Part shown: positions 19,942 through 27,335 of the stretch, piece by piece
Numbering within the stretch: the stretch's first letter is position 1
How the letters are laid out: each line of letters starts with the position of its first letter
NCBI GenBank assembly: GCA_020632715.1
Contig: JACKFA010000007.1
Coordinates: forward strand, 14,462 to 78,461
Reading direction: 5' to 3'
Source of the DNA: Deltaproteobacteria bacterium
Lineage (GTDB): Bacteria; Myxococcota_A; UBA9042; PHBI01
Length of the DNA stretch: 64,000 nucleotides
Position numbers and translations under genes: made by a program
The notes under the pieces: generated by a model
Seen by the model: only the letters and a program-made list of their open reading frames with translations
Told to the model about the DNA's origin: nothing
Database searches by the model: none

Positions 19942-19964
19942 GCGGCGCCTGCGTCGTCGCTACA

Positions 19965-20153
19965 AGGAGCCTGTAGCGCATTAGGGCTTCGAGCGGATTC
20001 GAGGCGTTCTCGGAGCGGATCGGCGAGGCGACGCGAAGCGTCGCCGGTTCCAAAACCCGAGGCGAACCAGCAGGTTCGCCGCAGTGGTTTTGGAACGCCG
20101 AGACGCCCGAGAACGCCCGAAGACGCCGAAGCATCTATGCGCTACAGGCTCCT
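19965..20153. mobile_element. 189-bp MITE-like element, copy 1, with perfect 17-bp terminal inverted repeats AGGAGCCTGTAGCGCAT / ATGCGCTACAGGCTCCT
   Basis: Near-identical to 23998..24186. There is an internal palindrome (GGTTCCAAAACC...GGTTTTGGAACG). Its terminal CTAG supplies the TAG stop of the UbiA gene. Confidence 0.7.
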
Positions 20154-21051
20154 AGAGGAACACGTTGGCGACGAGGCCGGCGCGGGCCCAGAGGGCGGTG
20201 CCGACGAGGAAGATCGCGAGGAGTGCCGTGCCGAGGTGCGTCAGCAGGATGCAGTCGCGGGTCGTGAGGCCGCGGCGGAGGCGCGGGCGGTAGAAGGCGA
20301 GCTGGATCCCGGGGGCGAGGAGCATCAGGAGCTCGCGGAGGCCGACGGCGCCGGTGAGGAAGGCGGCGAGGAGCACCACGGCCGAGGTCGCGAGGAGGGC
20401 GTCGATGATCTGGCGCGCGCGCTCGGGGCCGTGGACGACGGGGTAGGTGGGGACGTTGGCGAGGCGGTCGCCGTCGAGGTCGCGGAGGTCGTAGAGGATC
20501 TCGTAGGTGATCTCGAAGGCGACGAAGAAGACCGCGAGCCAGGCGACGGCGGCGGGGCCGCCGGGGTAGACGAGGCGCCAGTCGGCGGCGACGAGCGGGT
20601 AGATGAAGACGGTCAGGACGAAGAGGACCGCCGACATGAAGTTCTTGAAGAAGTACAGGTCCTTGAAGCGCCGTAGCCCGCTCGGGGTGGGGACGAGGCG
20701 CCAGCTGTAGCCCATGCCGATGAGCTGGACGACGACGCGCCAGGGGGTGAGGGCGGGCAGGAGCGCGACGGTGACGGCGAAGGAGCCGACGAAGACGGCG
20801 ACCCACGCGACGAGCACGGCGCGCTGGGCGCGGGCGACGCGCTCGGTGCCGCGGATCCCGTTGGCGAGGTCCTCCTTCAGGTCGGTGACGCGGTTCAGGA
20901 GGTTGATGAGGAGCCAGTCGACGCCGCCGATGAGGGCGACCGCCCACGGGTAGACCCCCGTGAGGACCCAGCCGAAGACGACGGCGGCGGTCATCGCGAT
21001 GAGGATGATGTGGATCCGCAGGATGGAGGCGGCGTCGGCGAGCCAGGACAT
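20152..21051 (-). CDS. UbiA-family aromatic prenyltransferase (membrane)
   Basis: Start MSWLADAASIL at 21051. Eight or nine TM segments and Asp-rich motifs (..NRVTDLKEDLANG.., ..YDLRDLDGD..). The upstream 114 codons of the tracked ORF are rejected. Confidence 0.75.
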   Translation of the reverse strand: MSWLADAASILRIHIILIAMTAAVVFGWVLTGVYPWAVALIGGVDWLLINLLNRVTDLKEDLANGIRGTERVARAQRAVLVAWVAVFVGSFAVTVALLPALTPWRVVVQLIGMGYSWRLVPTPSGLRRFKDLYFFKNFMSAVLFVLTVFIYPLVAADWRLVYPGGPAAVAWLAVFFVAFEITYEILYDLRDLDGDRLANVPTYPVVHGPERARQIIDALLATSAVVLLAAFLTGAVGLRELLMLLAPGIQLAFYRPRLRRGLTTRDCILLTHLGTALLAIFLVGTALWARAGLVANVFL

Positions 21052-23490: not shown

Positions 23491-24009
23491 ATGTTCCGAG
23501 CCGGAGAGGAGGGCTCCGTGAACGCGAGACAGGCCGCGATCCTGGCCGGCGTCGTGGCGATCGTCGCCGCGGGCGTCACGTGCGACGACGACGGTGGCCC
23601 GCGGCGGATCATCGACAACTTCTGCGCCACCGACCTCGACTGCGGCGCGCTCCTCTGTGTCGGCAGCGCCTGCGCCGATCCGGAGGGGGATCTCGACGGC
23701 GACGGCGTCGTGAACGGCGTCGAGCGCCGGATCGGCACCGACCTCACCCGCCCCGACACCGACGGCGACGGCAAGGGCGACTACGACGAGACGAGCGGCG
23801 GCTCCCTCACCCCGCCCGACCGCGACGGCGACGGCGCCATCGACGCCCTCGAGCGCGCCGACGTCGACACCGACGGCGACTGCCTCCCCGACGAGGCCGA
23901 CCCCGACGACGACGTCGTCGACCCCGACGCCTGCGGCCCCGACGCCTTCTGCGACGGCGACCTCGCCTGCGCCCCGCGCCGCGCCGACGGCGACCCGAGG
24001 AGCCTGTAG
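23491..24009 (+). pseudogene. 5' portion of a secreted Asp-rich (calcium-binding-repeat-like, DxDxDG) Cys-rich protein gene, interrupted by a MITE
   Basis: Signal-like ..AAILAGVVAIVAAGVTC.. and repeated ..DTDGDGKGDYDET.., ..DRDGDGAIDALE.. motifs. The frame ends on a TAG created inside the element terminus. Confidence 0.45.
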
Positions 24010-24186
24010 CGCATTAGGGCTTCGAGCGGATTCGAGGCGTTCTCGGAGCGGATCGGCGAGGCGACGCGAAGCGGCGTCGGTTCCAAAACCCGAGGCGAAC
24101 CAGCAGGTTCGCCGCAGCGGTTTTGGAACGCCGAGACGCCCGAGAACGCCCGAAGACAGCGAAGCATCTATGCGCTACAGGCTCCT
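23998..24186. mobile_element. 189-bp MITE-like element, copy 2, inserted within a coding region
   Basis: Same 17-bp TIRs as copy 1 and about 98% identical over its whole length. Confidence 0.7.
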
Positions 24187-25036
24187 AGCGACGACCCCGG
24201 GCAGTGCGCCTCGGGGGTCTGCTACGCGGGCCTCTGCGGCGCCACCTGAGTGTCCCGACGACGCCGGGTGCGACGGCCTCCTCTGCCAACCGAAGGGCCT
24301 CGGCGGCGCCGCGTGCGACGAGCCGCGCGAGTGCCTCTCCAACATGTGCGAGGCCGGCCTCTGCACCGGCTGCGCGGCCGACGCCGACTGCGACGACGGC
24401 GAGCCCTGCACCGACGACCGCTGCGACGACGCCGTCTGCGTGCAGGTCCCGAACACCGCCGCCTGCGACGACGGCGACGCCTGCACCTTCGCCGACGCCT
24501 GCGCCGGCGGCGCTTGCGCCGGCACCGCGGTCGTCTGCCAGGACGACCCCGGCCCCTGCGGCGCGAACCGCGCCTGCAACGGCACCGCCGCCTGCACCGT
24601 CACCTACCCGGGGAGCGGCACGGGCTGCAACGACGGCAACGCCTGCACCGTCGGCGACCACTGCAACGGCGGCGGCGCCTGCGTCGGCGGGGGGGCCGCG
24701 ACCAACGGCACCGGCTGCGGCGCGGCCGCCTCCCGGCGCTGCTGCGGCGGCACGTGCGTCGACACGAGCGCGGACGCCAGCAACTGCGGCGGCTGCGGGA
24801 TCGTCTGCGGCGCGGGCCTCGCCTGCGAGGATCCCGGCGTCACCACCGGCTGCGGCACCGCCGACTCCTCCGGGCGCTGCCGCTGCACCGGCGCGAACGC
24901 GCAGTGCCCGGGGTCGCAGATCTGCCGCACCTTCACCCCGTGGAACAACCGCTGCGCCCCCGTCGACGCCGGCAGCTGCGCCCCCGGGCAGCACGTCGTC
25001 GCGCTCTCGAGCTGCCCCGACCTCTGCAGCTATTGA
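24170..25036 (+). CDS. Cysteine-rich repeat protein (Myxococcus-type C-x-DGD-x-C-T-x-D-x-C-x-GG-x-C repeats); its first ATG lies inside the MITE
   Basis: At least nine Cys-rich units (..CDDGDACTFADACAGGACAGT.. and similar). No signal peptide from this start. Likely the 3' part of the disrupted gene, possibly still expressed. Confidence 0.45.
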   Translation: MRYRLLATTPGSAPRGSATRASAAPPECPDDAGCDGLLCQPKGLGGAACDEPRECLSNMCEAGLCTGCAADADCDDGEPCTDDRCDDAVCVQVPNTAACDDGDACTFADACAGGACAGTAVVCQDDPGPCGANRACNGTAACTVTYPGSGTGCNDGNACTVGDHCNGGGACVGGGAATNGTGCGAAASRRCCGGTCVDTSADASNCGGCGIVCGAGLACEDPGVTTGCGTADSSGRCRCTGANAQCPGSQICRTFTPWNNRCAPVDAGSCAPGQHVVALSSCPDLCSY

Positions 25037-25103: not shown

Positions 25104-27335
25104 ATGCCCGCCCCCCGGAAGCCGCTGCTCGCCACGCTCAAGGACGCCCTCTCCGTCCCTGAGCGGCGCCTCAAGGCGTGGCTCGTCATCGCGCTCATCG
25201 CCGGCGCCTACCTCTTCGGCGTGGGCGTCCGCCTCGCCTGGGTCCCGAAGGTCGAGGCCAACCCGCAGGCCGTCTGGGCCGGCCACGTCACGCTCACCGC
25301 GACCGACGGCTACTTCTTCGCGAGCGCCGTGCAGCACGCCGTCGAGGGCGGCGAGCCCACGAACATGCGCCTCCCGCCGTGGGAGAAGCACGCGATCACC
25401 ACGATCGCCACGGCCGCCGTGCACGTCCTCGACGCCGCCCCCCTCGAGGTCACCTTCTACCTCCCGGTCTTCCTCGCGCCGCTCCTCGCCGTGCCCCTCG
25501 TGCTCCTCGGGCGCCTCGTCGGCGCGCCCCTCTTCGGCTTCGCCGCCGGCGCCTTCGCGGTCGTCGGGCTCAGCTACTTCAACCGCTCCCTGCCCGGCTA
25601 CTTCGACACCGACATGGTGTCCGTCACCTTCCCGATGGTGCTCGTCTGGCTCCTCGCGAGCGCCGTCATGGCGCGCGACGGCGACGGCGGCCCCGACGAG
25701 CCCCGCGCCCTCCGCTACGCCATCGCCGCCGCCTTCTGGACCGCCTCGGGCACCTTCTTCTACAACCGCATCGCCCCGGTGCTCCTCGCCTTCTCCTTCG
25801 GCTTCATCCTCTACGCCCTCATCTTCCACCGCCGCGAGCGCTGGGTGTGGGTCGCGGCGCCGCTGCTCCTCGTCGCCGTCTGGGGGATCCCCTGGTGGGC
25901 CCGCGTCCTCGCCCTCGTCCCGCTCGCCGTCGTCGCGACGCGCGTCCGCCTCTCGCGCAACGCCCTCATCGCCGCCGGCGCCGTCGCGCTCGTCGTCTTC
26001 TTCCTGACGAGCCCCGGCCTCGACCTCGTGATGAACCCGATCGAGCGCTTCTCCGACCGCGCCGGGAGCACCGGCGAGGGCGGCATCAAGTTCGTCTCCA
26101 CGACCTCCCTCATCCGCGAGACCGCGAAGCTCCCCTTCGACCGCCTCGCCCAGCGCTTCGCCGGCTCGACCCTCGCCTTCGTCATGGGCGTCGTCGGCTA
26201 CCTCCTCCTCTGCGCCCGCCACCGCGCCTTCCTGCTCGCGCTGCCCGTCGTCGCCCTCGGCGCCTTCAGCCTCGACGGCGGGCTCCGCTTCACCATCTTC
26301 GGCGTGCCCATCGCCGCCCTCGGCGCCACCTGGCTCATCTTCCTCGCGCTCGGCTGGCTCGTCCGCGCCGCGCGCGCCCTCGCCTCGCGCCGCGCCGTCC
26401 TCGCGATGCACGTCGTGGGCGTCCTCGCCGCCGTCCCGCTCATCGCGCCGAACGTCGAGGCCGACCTCGCGCGCACCCCCGCGACCGCGCTCCCGGCCGG
26501 CGAGGCCGAGCTCATGCGCGATCTCCGCGCCATCCGGAAGCCCGGCGACTACGCCGTCGCCTGGTGGGACTACGGCTACCCGCTCTGGTACTTCGCGGGC
26601 GTGAACACCCTCGTCGACGGCAGCAAGCACGCCGCCGACACGCTCGCCGTCTCGCAGATCCTCTTCTCCGACTCCCAGCTCCAGGCCGCGAACCTCGCGC
26701 GCGCCGCGGTCGAGCTCTACGCGACGACCAAGCTCCCGAACGCCCCCGCGCTCCCGCGCCTGTTCCGGCGGGCGCGGAAGGAGGGCAAGACCCCGCGGCA
26801 GCTCCTCGCCGAGATGGCGACGCCGGCCTACGAGCCGCCGCCGAAGACGCGCGAGATCTACCTCTACGTGCCGCAGCGGATCCTGCCGCTCATGATCTCC
26901 ATCGAGAAGTTCTCGCAGGACGCGCGCCGCCCCGAGGGCGTCGCCGAGCCGCACCAGCCCTTCTCCGTGTTCTCACCGGCCGTCAAGGAGCTCCCGGGCG
27001 GCGTCGTCGAGCTCCAGGGCGGCTATCGCGTCGATCCGCAGCGCGGCGTCGTCCTGCGCACGCGCAACGGCCGCGAGGAGAGCATGCCCATCGCGACCCT
27101 CTGGGAGGTGGGCGTCAACAAGTCCTTCGAGCCCATCTCGCGCGCGCTCAAGACCTACGCCCCGACCGGCGCGCACGTGCTCCTCATGCGCTCCTACGGC
27201 TCGGCGCTCATCCTCGACGAGGCGCTCCTGCGCTCGAACCTCGTGCAGATGTACCTCTTCGGCAACGTCGACAAGGACCTCTTCGAGCCCGTCCTCCGCA
27301 CCGCCTTCGGCACCGTCTACCGCGTCATCCGATGA
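25104..27335 (+). CDS. pglB: PglB/STT3-type oligosaccharyltransferase (N-glycosylation OST, 743 aa)
   Basis: 13 predicted TM helices plus a C-terminal periplasmic domain. The hallmark WWDYGYPLWYFAGVNTLVDGSKH compares with C. lari PglB WWDYGYP...TLVDGGKH. N-terminal ..TATDGYFFAS.. gives the Asp, ..YFDTDMV.. the DxD and ..TSLIRE.. the TIxE-like motif. The upstream 300 codons of tracked ORF 24204.. are rejected. Confidence 0.8.
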   Translation: MPAPRKPLLATLKDALSVPERRLKAWLVIALIAGAYLFGVGVRLAWVPKVEANPQAVWAGHVTLTATDGYFFASAVQHAVEGGEPTNMRLPPWEKHAITTIATAAVHVLDAAPLEVTFYLPVFLAPLLAVPLVLLGRLVGAPLFGFAAGAFAVVGLSYFNRSLPGYFDTDMVSVTFPMVLVWLLASAVMARDGDGGPDEPRALRYAIAAAFWTASGTFFYNRIAPVLLAFSFGFILYALIFHRRERWVWVAAPLLLVAVWGIPWWARVLALVPLAVVATRVRLSRNALIAAGAVALVVFFLTSPGLDLVMNPIERFSDRAGSTGEGGIKFVSTTSLIRETAKLPFDRLAQRFAGSTLAFVMGVVGYLLLCARHRAFLLALPVVALGAFSLDGGLRFTIFGVPIAALGATWLIFLALGWLVRAARALASRRAVLAMHVVGVLAAVPLIAPNVEADLARTPATALPAGEAELMRDLRAIRKPGDYAVAWWDYGYPLWYFAGVNTLVDGSKHAADTLAVSQILFSDSQLQAANLARAAVELYATTKLPNAPALPRLFRRARKEGKTPRQLLAEMATPAYEPPPKTREIYLYVPQRILPLMISIEKFSQDARRPEGVAEPHQPFSVFSPAVKELPGGVVELQGGYRVDPQRGVVLRTRNGREESMPIATLWEVGVNKSFEPISRALKTYAPTGAHVLLMRSYGSALILDEALLRSNLVQMYLFGNVDKDLFEPVLRTAFGTVYRVIR

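Follow-up and report, generated by a model that had tools for sequence, protein, structure and literature searches.

In the 64,000-nt stretch of DNA analysed here (the window), which comes from a myxobacterium-like MAG of an uncultured organism, a gene for a Cys-rich protein is interrupted by a 187-nt MITE, and its reading frame switches shortly beyond the element. We consider it probable (about 0.82) that this locus is a pseudogene carrying two lesions, an insertion and a frameshift, and that it was once one secreted Cys-rich lipoprotein gene; an ordinary young pseudogene is the most likely reading, ahead of a split of the gene into two functional halves. The ancestral gene would have encoded a single secreted lipoprotein of about 440 aa, in the order signal peptide with a lipobox Cys, TSP3-like calcium-binding repeats, Cys-rich repeats, and a conserved C-terminal Cys domain. 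The first lesion would be the insertion of the non-autonomous element into the TA of a CTAG spanning the codons CCT-AGC (Pro-Ser), with duplication of the TA and a TAG brought into frame after three codons, and the second, presumably later, a 1-nt frameshift downstream of the element. The features of the locus, and the second copy of the element in the window, are as follows.

19966-20152, no strand assigned: MITE copy 1, of the same family as copy 2, with perfect TIRs at 19966-19981 and 20137-20152.
23518-23996, + strand: N-terminal remnant of the gene, frame 1, annotated as H6745_25115 (MCB9735881.1), a 163-aa hypothetical protein (exact NCBI match).
23997-23998, no strand assigned: left-hand target duplication, which reads GA today and was probably once TA, with C 23996 before it.
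23999-24185, no strand assigned: MITE copy 2, 187 nt, with perfect 16-nt TIRs at 23999-24014 and 24170-24185 and a largely palindromic body.
24007-24009, + strand: TAG in the left repeat, which ends the upstream ORF after three element codons (R-S-L).
24170-24172, + strand: ATG of the right repeat, facing outward, at which a 288-codon ORF formally starts (24170-25036, frame 2, MRYRLL...).
24186-24187, no strand assigned: right-hand TA of the target duplication, with G 24188 next to it, giving the CTAG context.
24187-24249, + strand: twenty orphaned frame-1 codons (SDDPGQCASGVCYAGLCGAT) and then a premature TGA at 24247-24249, recognised by GC3 and by alignment with the homologue P0170.
24238-24250, + strand: frameshift interval, bounded by TGC 24235-24237, the last Cys codon in frame 1, and TGT 24251-24253, the first in frame 2.
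24248-25036, + strand: C-terminal remnant, frame 2, with Cys-rich repeats and, at the C-terminus, a conserved domain (RRCCGG...CPDLCSY).
24344-25036, + strand: GenBank call in the downstream half, H6745_25120 (MCB9735882.1), a 230-aa hypothetical protein (exact look-up).

The 16-nt terminal repeat of the element, GGAGCCTGTAGCGCAT, has four exact matches in the window (23999-24014 on the + strand, 24170-24185 on the - strand, 19966-19981, and 20137-20152); 0 of 100 shuffles gave five matches at up to three mismatches. The window thus holds two near-identical copies in 64 kb, which agree at 182 of 187 bases and differ at five; copy 1 sits between convergent genes, with its right end adjoining the stop codon of a UbiA-family gene, and a third copy is implied by the right flank of L004, a chimeric contig. 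The whole 187-nt element forms a single long hairpin, with predicted folds of -81.6 kcal/mol as DNA (z = -11) and -136.8 kcal/mol as RNA (z = -12). Stop codons interrupt five of its six frames, and the open frame, 63 low-complexity codons, leaves no room for a transposase. An Rfam search with both copies, covering TIR and body, returned no match. Both terminal repeats of the family carry an inward-reading stop and an outward-reading ATG, and the outward ATG with the MRYRLL start is present at both ends of both copies.

The upstream remnant has a lipoprotein-type signal (MNARQAAILAGVVAIVAAGVTC), one C-x4-C-x4-C motif and four DxDGDG repeats, with a GC3 of 155/160. The first-pass annotation had started this ORF at ATG 23491, an in-frame alternative; the likelier true start is GTG 23518, which has GGAGAGGAGG 5–9 nt upstream and is the start used by NCBI. 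The same annotation had the ORF ending on a TAG inside the element, as we also found, with a C-terminus of ...ADGDPRSL* within the left repeat. It had further described a signal peptide and DxDxDG repeats resembling calcium-binding ones. The signal is present and the repeats can be recognised on inspection, and some of the weaker protein matches carry PF18884, but the score of the repeats themselves against Pfam TSP3_bac (PF18884) was 13.8 bits (E = 0.052), below the gathering threshold of 25 bits. The 163-aa stub is probably still produced, as its promoter, Shine-Dalgarno sequence and signal peptide have all remained intact.

Since the flanks of related elements (C-TA...TA-G) suggest that TA is duplicated inside a CTAG target, 189 nt (187 + 2) were removed to reconstruct the junction. 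The result reads ...DGDPSDDPGQCASGVCYAGLCGAT*, with TGA 24247-24249 as the stop, and it bears out the earlier proposal that removal of the element restores a Cys motif: the excision is the one predicted by TA duplication, and the restored frame is backed by GC3 and by P0170. This frame continues into ...ECPDDAGCDG... once a single base is skipped between 24238 and 24247. In the stretch directly after the element, GC3 is 20/20 in frame 1 versus 13/20 in frame 2, the frame of the element ATG; GC3 elsewhere in the gene is 0.97–0.98, and the probability of 13/20 or less in the true frame is 2.5e-7. Because of this difference and of the continuity with P0170, frame 1 is taken as the real coding frame after the element. 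The frame plot switched near 24250, and the frameshift interval (GGCGCCACCTGAG), 51–63 nt (about 55) beyond the right end of the element, has at present a surplus of one base or a deficit of two. On these data, the second lesion reads as a 1-nt frameshift separate from the MITE insertion. That such a shift is needed about 50 nt past the junction had been seen correctly in the first reading; the homopolymer sequencing error suspected near 24230-24250 is ruled out, as the longest homopolymer in the interval is 2 and the same bases occur in an independent MAG (L002). Set against the continuous chain of P0170, the locus shows the stop codons TAG 24007 and TGA 24247 and the frame switch at 24238-24250. 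The predicted element-free junction would read GACCCTAGCGAC, or GACCCGAGCGAC.

We also considered a single lesion, in which no target duplication accompanied the insertion (removal of 187 or 190 nt), the ancestor read ...DGDP(I)ATTPGSAPRGSATRASAAPPECPDD... through a low-complexity linker, and no frameshift took place. Removal of either length does leave one uninterrupted ORF, and the window has GA in place of TA on the left flank. However, the linker would then be the 13/20 frame in a gene with GC3 of 0.97–0.98, the frame-1 peptide fits a motif of P0170 and its repair scores 15 bits higher in alignment with that protein (217 bits, versus 202 bits for the frame-2 reading), and the flanks across the family are TA. 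We regard a single lesion as highly improbable and retain the two-lesion pseudogene.

The best full-length homologue of the repaired protein was P0170, a single chain of 727 aa at 41–47% identity. Its first HSP extends from the signal peptide over the junction and on into the Cys repeats, and the second covers the C-terminal domain. The junction peptide aligns with DCNSGVCHAGRC of P0170, with the conserved motif C-x-SGVC-x-AG-x-C; the motif C-x-SG-L/V-C-x4-C also occurs in P0025 and P0130-P0133. The N-terminal module is common to P0025, P0130-P0133 and P0170, and both modules are fused in P0025 as well; homologues of the C-terminal remnant were P0001-P0003, P0157 and P0170. From this homologue at 41–47% identity and from the base composition, we infer an ancestral continuous gene, and the split of a secreted Cys-rich gene by the MITE, as first proposed, is thereby upheld. 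A search for a close intact orthologue (>55% identity) or an empty-site allele gave none in any collection searched. Synteny through the adjacent STT3/PglB-like gene led to nearest relatives 46–48% identical with unrelated upstream genes, and thus to no orthologous empty site, and the P0170 locus (L132) is not syntenic with that of the window.

At E <= 0.001, the repaired protein matched 6817 proteins, and its domain order is the same throughout as in P0170. In both respects it resembles the Cys-rich repeat surface proteins of Myxococcota and related MAGs (PF00526, some with TSP3_bac); in contrast to them, the window protein lies under all Pfam and NCBIfam thresholds, no domain being assigned to it above threshold, and it is split. 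Most homologues carry a precomputed PF00526 annotation; hmmscan of the repaired protein against Pfam Dicty_CTDC (PF00526) and the NCBIfam Cys-repeat models gave no match at E <= 10. The label "Myxococcus-type" that had been given to the Cys repeats was accordingly not confirmed, as no Pfam or NCBIfam cysteine-repeat model matched.

GenBank lists two hypothetical proteins here, and the closest C-terminal homologues (P0001-P0003) are without the TSP3-like N-terminal module, as would be expected of two naturally separate genes with the element inserted into the gap or at the end of the upstream gene. Against such an arrangement, in the pre-insertion sequence the 345 nt preceding the first Cys repeat contain no ATG, GTG or TTG in the downstream frame, whose first start is ATG 24344, inside a Cys motif. 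About 30 codons of coding-grade GC3 would go untranslated, the frame-1 stretch is coding and matches a P0170 motif that runs straight into Cys repeats, and the downstream product would be without a signal peptide. Orthologues occurring as two separate genes, named in the first-pass annotation as evidence against a split gene, were not seen; the downstream part has no natural start, and P0170, the best homologue over the full length, is one continuous chain. We consider two original genes extremely improbable.

The left junction of the element is identical in four other assemblies (L004, L005, L006 and L133), and the right junction together with the frameshift interval is base-for-base identical in L002 (GCA_020430565.1), which differs from the window by 9 SNPs in 3.2 kb and thus represents an independent MAG from a different population. 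Each of the five related contigs extending to the site (L002, L004-L006 and L133) carries the element. Both lesions are common to different strains. An assembly or sequencing artefact, with the element misplaced or the extra base a long-read indel error in a gene that is really intact, would agree with the breaking of short-read contigs at this site (L001-L006 and L133 end in or near the element) and with the chimeric course of L004 across the element. Yet the left and right junctions recur in assemblies from different samples, and the frameshift interval is the same in L002 and holds no homopolymer longer than 2, which makes an artefact scarcely credible. Between strains, the downstream half had 6 SNPs in 850 nt and the STT3 gene next to it 2 in 2232 nt (Fisher p = 0.007; small counts), a density about 8-fold higher in the former on these small counts. 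Few strain variants were available for the codon comparison, in which the variable codons were 7 non-synonymous versus 1 synonymous across the broken gene and 3 versus 1 in its downstream half. One strain variant abolishes the first Cys of the junction motif. Together, these few variants may point to relaxed constraint on the broken gene.

As the window copies are flanked by GA...TA (copy 2) and AA...TA (copy 1), with TA on the left of neither, the target-duplication model for them rests on related elements elsewhere. Loci with the same TIR were collected by a scan of a genome collection with the 15-mer GAGCCTGTAGCGCAT; among the matches listed, most were chance matches in unrelated phyla. The informative loci were L014, L030, L037, L059, L060, L070, L073, L098, L106 and L123, titled Myxococcota, Myxococcales, Deltaproteobacteria or Kofleriaceae, and L027 and L050, both the unclassified "bacterium isolate 5_bin.26". 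A metagenome scan with a 22-base pattern gave two short contigs only (L130 and L131), both informative for the element boundaries. Among the matches listed in Myxococcota MAGs, the left ends bore TA in 10 of 16 cases and a preceding C in 15 of 16, and the right ends TA in 11 of 19 and a following G in 16 of 19, so that the consensus among these matches is C-TA|element|TA-G. In L131, two abutting elements have one TA in common. The same 16-nt ends occur on several unrelated bodies of 165–189 nt in different Myxococcota MAGs. The left GA of copy 2 is probably a mutated TA, and the change involved, CCT to CCG, is synonymous.

IS630 and ISY100 duplicate TA on insertion (PMC2170065), and the target preference of IS630 is given there, with reference to the Tenzen papers, as CTAG. 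CTAG sites, the apparent targets of these MITEs, are very rare in this 73% G+C genome; those hit were a rare CCT-AGC codon pair (copy 2) and a TAG stop codon (copy 1). In a comparison with the criteria for REP/REPIN sequences, which are mobilised by RAYT, the repeat contains GTAG and the whole element is one long hairpin; the conserved TA/CTAG flanks point instead to DDE-type cut-and-paste. The element would have moved in trans, by cut-and-paste, through a transposase recognising the 16-nt terminal repeats. Among the loci retrieved, no TIR pair 0.8–3 kb apart was able to bound a transposase gene as a parent IS.

By analogy, the element appears to behave like MITEs mobilised by IS630/Tc1-mariner transposases, such as Nezha of cyanobacteria, RUP of Streptococcus pneumoniae and Correia of Neisseria (PMC3184786), which are likewise small and multicopy, with perfect TIRs and a long hairpin. 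The flanks here also fit a TA duplication in the C-TA-G context as for IS630 (PMC2170065). It differs from them in that GGAGCCTGTAGCGCAT and the body have no Rfam match and no parent IS was found, in the use of one 16-nt end on several bodies, and in the mutated left TA of both window copies. To all appearances, a MITE set in uncultured Myxococcota with one 16-nt terminal repeat and differing bodies has not been described before.

The remaining question concerns the downstream half, whose GC3 is 257/262 (0.98) and which has no further stop or frameshift over 262 codons. This undecayed state fits a very recent inactivation and would fit continued use too. The first-pass annotation had rightly reported a long ORF beginning at an ATG inside the MITE, and had offered two readings, a freshly disrupted pseudogene and a gene fission with a MITE-provided start. 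The former stands. In the latter, a compensating +1 frameshift would have been selected, and the locus would make a shortened lipoprotein and, from the ATG of the right repeat, a new protein of 288 aa. The ORF is indeed open for 288 codons, the frameshift does bring the element ATG into register with the Cys-rich part, and no further decay is seen. However, no Shine-Dalgarno sequence was found upstream of ATG 24170 (GAAGACAGCGAAGCATCT), and a sigma-70 promoter and terminator scan at the locus gave no promoter-like site and no terminator. In the predicted RNA hairpin the AUG is base-paired within the terminal stem, where it would be locked whenever the whole element is transcribed. The N-terminus of the ORF (MRYRLLATTPGSAPRGSATRASAAPPE) is without a hydrophobic signal segment, although the protein has about 50 cysteines in disulfide-type repeats. 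A random 1-nt indel gives the needed register about half the time, and the excess of non-synonymous downstream variants and the high SNP density relative to the neighbouring gene, both from few variants, also speak against fission. The element ATG was passed over by the NCBI gene caller, and the 288-aa ORF was absent from the protein collection in an exact look-up, which implies that no gene caller reported ORF 24170-25036. A look-up of contigs encoding the 230-aa NCBI product gave none on record. Functional gene fission is thus unlikely, and nothing in the sequences analysed suggests that the downstream ORF is translated; its C-terminal 260 codons are most likely untranslated, and the ORF from the element ATG is most likely a by-product of the outward ATG in every terminal repeat and of a frameshift that put one such ATG in register. 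Very unlikely, in our view, is the broader proposal that the frameshift was selected after the insertion, coupling the Cys-rich half to the element ATG as a new, independently translated gene, and that the family is a portable gene-splitting module which regenerates two CTAG targets per insertion. If the downstream ORF were translated, the locus would be a clear natural case of a broken gene that acquired a start codon from the end of a transposon.

[quoted passage not shown] The present element is similar to these in lying within a coding sequence, with stop and start codons at its ends that create chimeric ORFs on both sides, and in that element plus duplication amount to 189 nt (63 codons) with one of six frames open throughout. 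It differs in that the stop after three codons causes truncation and not an in-frame addition, and, from REP2, in that its ATG has no ribosome-binding site or promoter. As for the annotation, H6745_25115 and H6745_25120 should be one pseudogene in GenBank, the second of the two calls starting at a methionine inside a Cys motif.

The 16-mer GGAGCCTGTAGCGCAT has four exact matches in the window, which comes from a MAG of 73% G+C, and these form two inverted pairs. In a shuffle test, its five matches at no more than 3 mismatches were reached by 0 of 100 shuffles.

19966–19981 and 20137–20152, inverted pair: terminal repeats of MITE copy 1, exact 16-mer matches
23999–24014 and 24170–24185, inverted pair: terminal repeats of MITE copy 2, exact 16-mer matches

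Each pair encloses an element of 187 nt, with 5 of 187 positions differing between the copies. The element body is also mostly palindromic, and a single long hairpin was predicted for the element, both as DNA (−81.6 kcal/mol, z = −11) and as RNA (−136.8 kcal/mol, z = −12); an Rfam search with the element gave no matches. Judged by its repeats and fold, the element has the anatomy of a bacterial MITE.

Scans of sequence collections with the terminal repeat returned, among the matches listed, small elements with the same repeat and different bodies in a few other MAGs, mostly labelled Myxococcota, Myxococcales, Deltaproteobacteria or Kofleriaceae. Among the listed matches, 16 left and 19 right ends were tallied: the left flank was TA in 10/16, preceded by C in 15/16, and the right flank was TA in 11/19, followed by G in 16/19. 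The non-TA flanks were mostly TG or CA, exceptions that are expected from AT-to-GC drift, and on contig L131 two abutting elements have one TA in common (GGCTCC-TA-GGAGCC). Read from these flanks and L131, the pattern bears the signature of an element that enters CTAG at its TA and duplicates the TA. IS630 inserts into CTAG with TA duplication, which is general for IS630/Tc1-mariner elements (PMC2170065), and the elements here are flanked C-TA...TA-G like that target. No parent transposase with matching ends was found among the loci with same-repeat elements, and assignment to the IS630 group thus comes from target-site behaviour alone. In the window the left flanks are GA at copy 2 (23997–23998) and AA at copy 1 (19964–19965), not TA; we infer from the related elements a TA duplication that is no longer intact here. 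Copy 2 would have entered the CTAG inside GAC-CCT-AGC-GAC, and the left TA would later have been altered to GA at copy 2 (synonymous, CCT to CCG) and to AA at copy 1. Loss of T from the left TA in both window copies, with the right TA intact in both, may be chance (n = 2).

This 16-nt terminal repeat flanks bodies of 165–189 nt that are of several unrelated kinds (contigs L014, L027, L030, L037, L050, L059, L070, L098, L106 and L131) in different MAGs, mostly labelled Myxococcota or Myxococcales, which suggests one transposase lineage moving many MITE families. With G as its first base and C as its last, the element would rebuild two CTAG targets whenever it inserts into C-TA-G. Element plus duplication make up 63 codons (23997–24187 and 19964–20154), and one of the six frames is open end to end (GACSALGLRADS...EASMRYRLL), so that an element placed in this frame and orientation would extend a host protein by 63 in-frame residues instead of truncating it.

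Copy 2 lies between two reading frames.

23518–24009, frame 1: upstream half of the broken gene, GTG-start version (NCBI MCB9735881.1)
24170–25036, frame 2: downstream ORF of 288 codons, its ATG at the inner end of the right terminal repeat

The product of the upstream ORF has a signal of lipoprotein type (MNARQAAILAGVVAIVAAGVTC), together with a C-x4-C-x4-C motif and four DxDGDG repeats. The ORF enters the element and ends at TAG 24007–24009 after three element-derived codons (R-S-L). The first-pass annotation had started it at ATG 23491; GTG 23518, preceded by GGAGAGGAGG and used by NCBI, is the likelier start. The downstream ORF goes on into Cys-rich repeats, whose earlier label "Myxococcus-type" was not confirmed, as no Cys-repeat model in Pfam or NCBIfam matched, and a conserved C-terminal domain. 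The repaired protein was assigned to no Pfam or NCBIfam family at threshold (TSP3_bac, 13.8 bits vs a cut-off of 25).

The length excised sets the frame outcome, so the element boundaries decide the interpretation. The TA-duplication model gives 187 + 2 = 189 nt, which keeps frame 1 (...DGDPSDDPGQCASGVCYAGLCGAT*) and requires a further frameshift, while 187 or 190 nt would leave a single intact ORF, with ...DGDP(I)ATTPGSAPRGSATRASAAPPECPDD... as a linker, and call for no second lesion. The upstream half has a GC3 of 155/160 and the downstream half one of 257/262; over 24187–24247, frame 1 gives 20/20 and the frame set by the element's ATG 13/20 (probability of 13/20 or fewer in a true coding frame, 2.5e-7), and in a sliding plot frame 2 takes over from frame 1 near 24250. 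Among the matches of an exhaustive HMMER search with the repaired protein is P0170, one polypeptide of 727 aa with the same part order: lipoprotein signal; Cys motif; TSP3-like repeats; '...GDPCESDADCNSGVCHAGRCTGVCGDRDDC...'; Cys repeats; C-terminal RRCCGG...CPDFCYY domain. One BLASTP alignment to P0170 spans the junction (residues 1–345) and a second covers the C-terminal domain. With 217 bits for the frame-1 repair against 202 bits for the version with the frame-2 linker, the alignment scores, like GC3, speak against the linker version. By two independent lines, composition and homology, the 20 codons past the element (24187–24246) read as frame 1, and the additional 1-nt frameshift noted in the first-pass annotation is real: on this reading the second lesion lies between TGC 24235–24237 and TGT 24251–24253, with one base extra or two missing.

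By the same two lines, the ancestral gene was continuous, as first proposed. Other proteins homologous to the N-terminal module also contain the C-x-SG-L/V-C-x4-C motif, and in P0025, too, the N- and C-terminal modules stand in one chain. The best full-length relative is 41–47% identical and without synteny, and neither an empty-site allele nor a close intact orthologue appeared in protein searches or related loci; even the nearest STT3 relatives do not exceed 48% identity, and the genes beside them are unrelated. GenBank lists the halves as independent hypothetical proteins, MCB9735881.1 (23518–24009) and MCB9735882.1 (24344–25036), with no pseudogene flag. They are not two naturally separate genes: in the reconstructed pre-insertion downstream frame, the 345 nt that precede the first Cys repeat contain no ATG, GTG or TTG, and the earliest start codon of this frame, ATG 24344 within CLSNMCEAGLC, is the NCBI start of H6745_25120 (MCB9735882.1), a Met inside a Cys motif. 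Nor is the structure an assembly or sequencing artefact. The left junction of copy 2 recurs in contigs of four other assemblies (L004–L006, L133), and L002, from another MAG (GCA_020430565.1; 9 SNPs in 3.2 kb), shares the right junction and matches every base of the frameshift interval (GGCGCCACCTGAG); this interval contains no homopolymer, which answers the earlier concern over a homopolymer error. L004 (ENA contig, 1057–1312) joins this left junction and copy 1-like body variants to a right flank that is unrelated, GGCTCC-TA-CTCTTCC. The contig was probably joined chimerically at the repeat during assembly, and it shows the right flank of a third copy.

The first-pass annotation described the element, the TAG within it, the ATG in its right repeat and the 189-nt excision frame correctly, and weighed a fresh pseudogene against gene fission with a MITE-provided start. 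Nothing supports translation of the downstream half from that ATG. An outward-facing ATG (MRYRLL) occurs in every terminal repeat of every copy, so it belongs to the element and not to this locus; the 18 nt before it (GAAGACAGCGAAGCATCT) lack a Shine-Dalgarno sequence, and a scan found no sigma-70-like promoter. If a transcript spanned the whole element, the left repeat would base-pair with the AUG and hold it in the terminal stem of a hairpin of −137 kcal/mol. The predicted N-terminus lacks a hydrophobic signal segment, although the protein is built of Cys repeats of the disulfide type and signal peptides are present in all its homologues. About half of 1-nt indels would bring the ATG into register by chance. 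Window and L002 differ at 6 of 850 nt in the downstream half vs 2 of 2232 nt in the adjacent STT3 gene (Fisher p = 0.007), and all strain sequences of the broken gene give 7 non-synonymous vs 1 synonymous codon changes, one replacing the junction motif's first Cys; these variants, small in number, point to relaxed constraint. No other damage is seen in the downstream part, in keeping with a recent event. The donated ATG is thus formally present and very probably not used, and the locus is most likely, on sequence evidence, a young pseudogene that GenBank wrongly lists as two hypothetical proteins. Many cases of MITE insertion in genes and of ORF fusions derived from repeats are on record (PMC3184786), and the broken gene is a further one of this kind.

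At window 24205 (L002 position 42), T is G in the other MAG, turning the first Cys of the orphaned frame-1 QCASGVC into Gly, which fits lost constraint on that stretch. The Cys-rich repeat unit (24560–24720) holds a conserved N-G-T sequon, CNGTAACTVTYPG, with CNGTASCTVSFPG and similar in homologues P0170, P0184 and P0004. An STT3/PglB-type oligosaccharyltransferase gene (25104–27335) begins 67 nt downstream of the broken gene and is followed by glycosyltransferase genes (contig L001), and the lipoprotein may once have been an N-glycosylation substrate of this neighbour.

Copy 1 (here 19966–20155) sits exactly on the stop codon (20152–20154) of a convergent UbiA-family gene on the minus strand, whose present TAG consists of the TA duplication and the element's last base. 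The inferred CTAG target held the original TAG, and insertion would thus have regenerated the stop. At 73% G+C, CTAG sites may be largely limited to stop codons and rare codon pairs.
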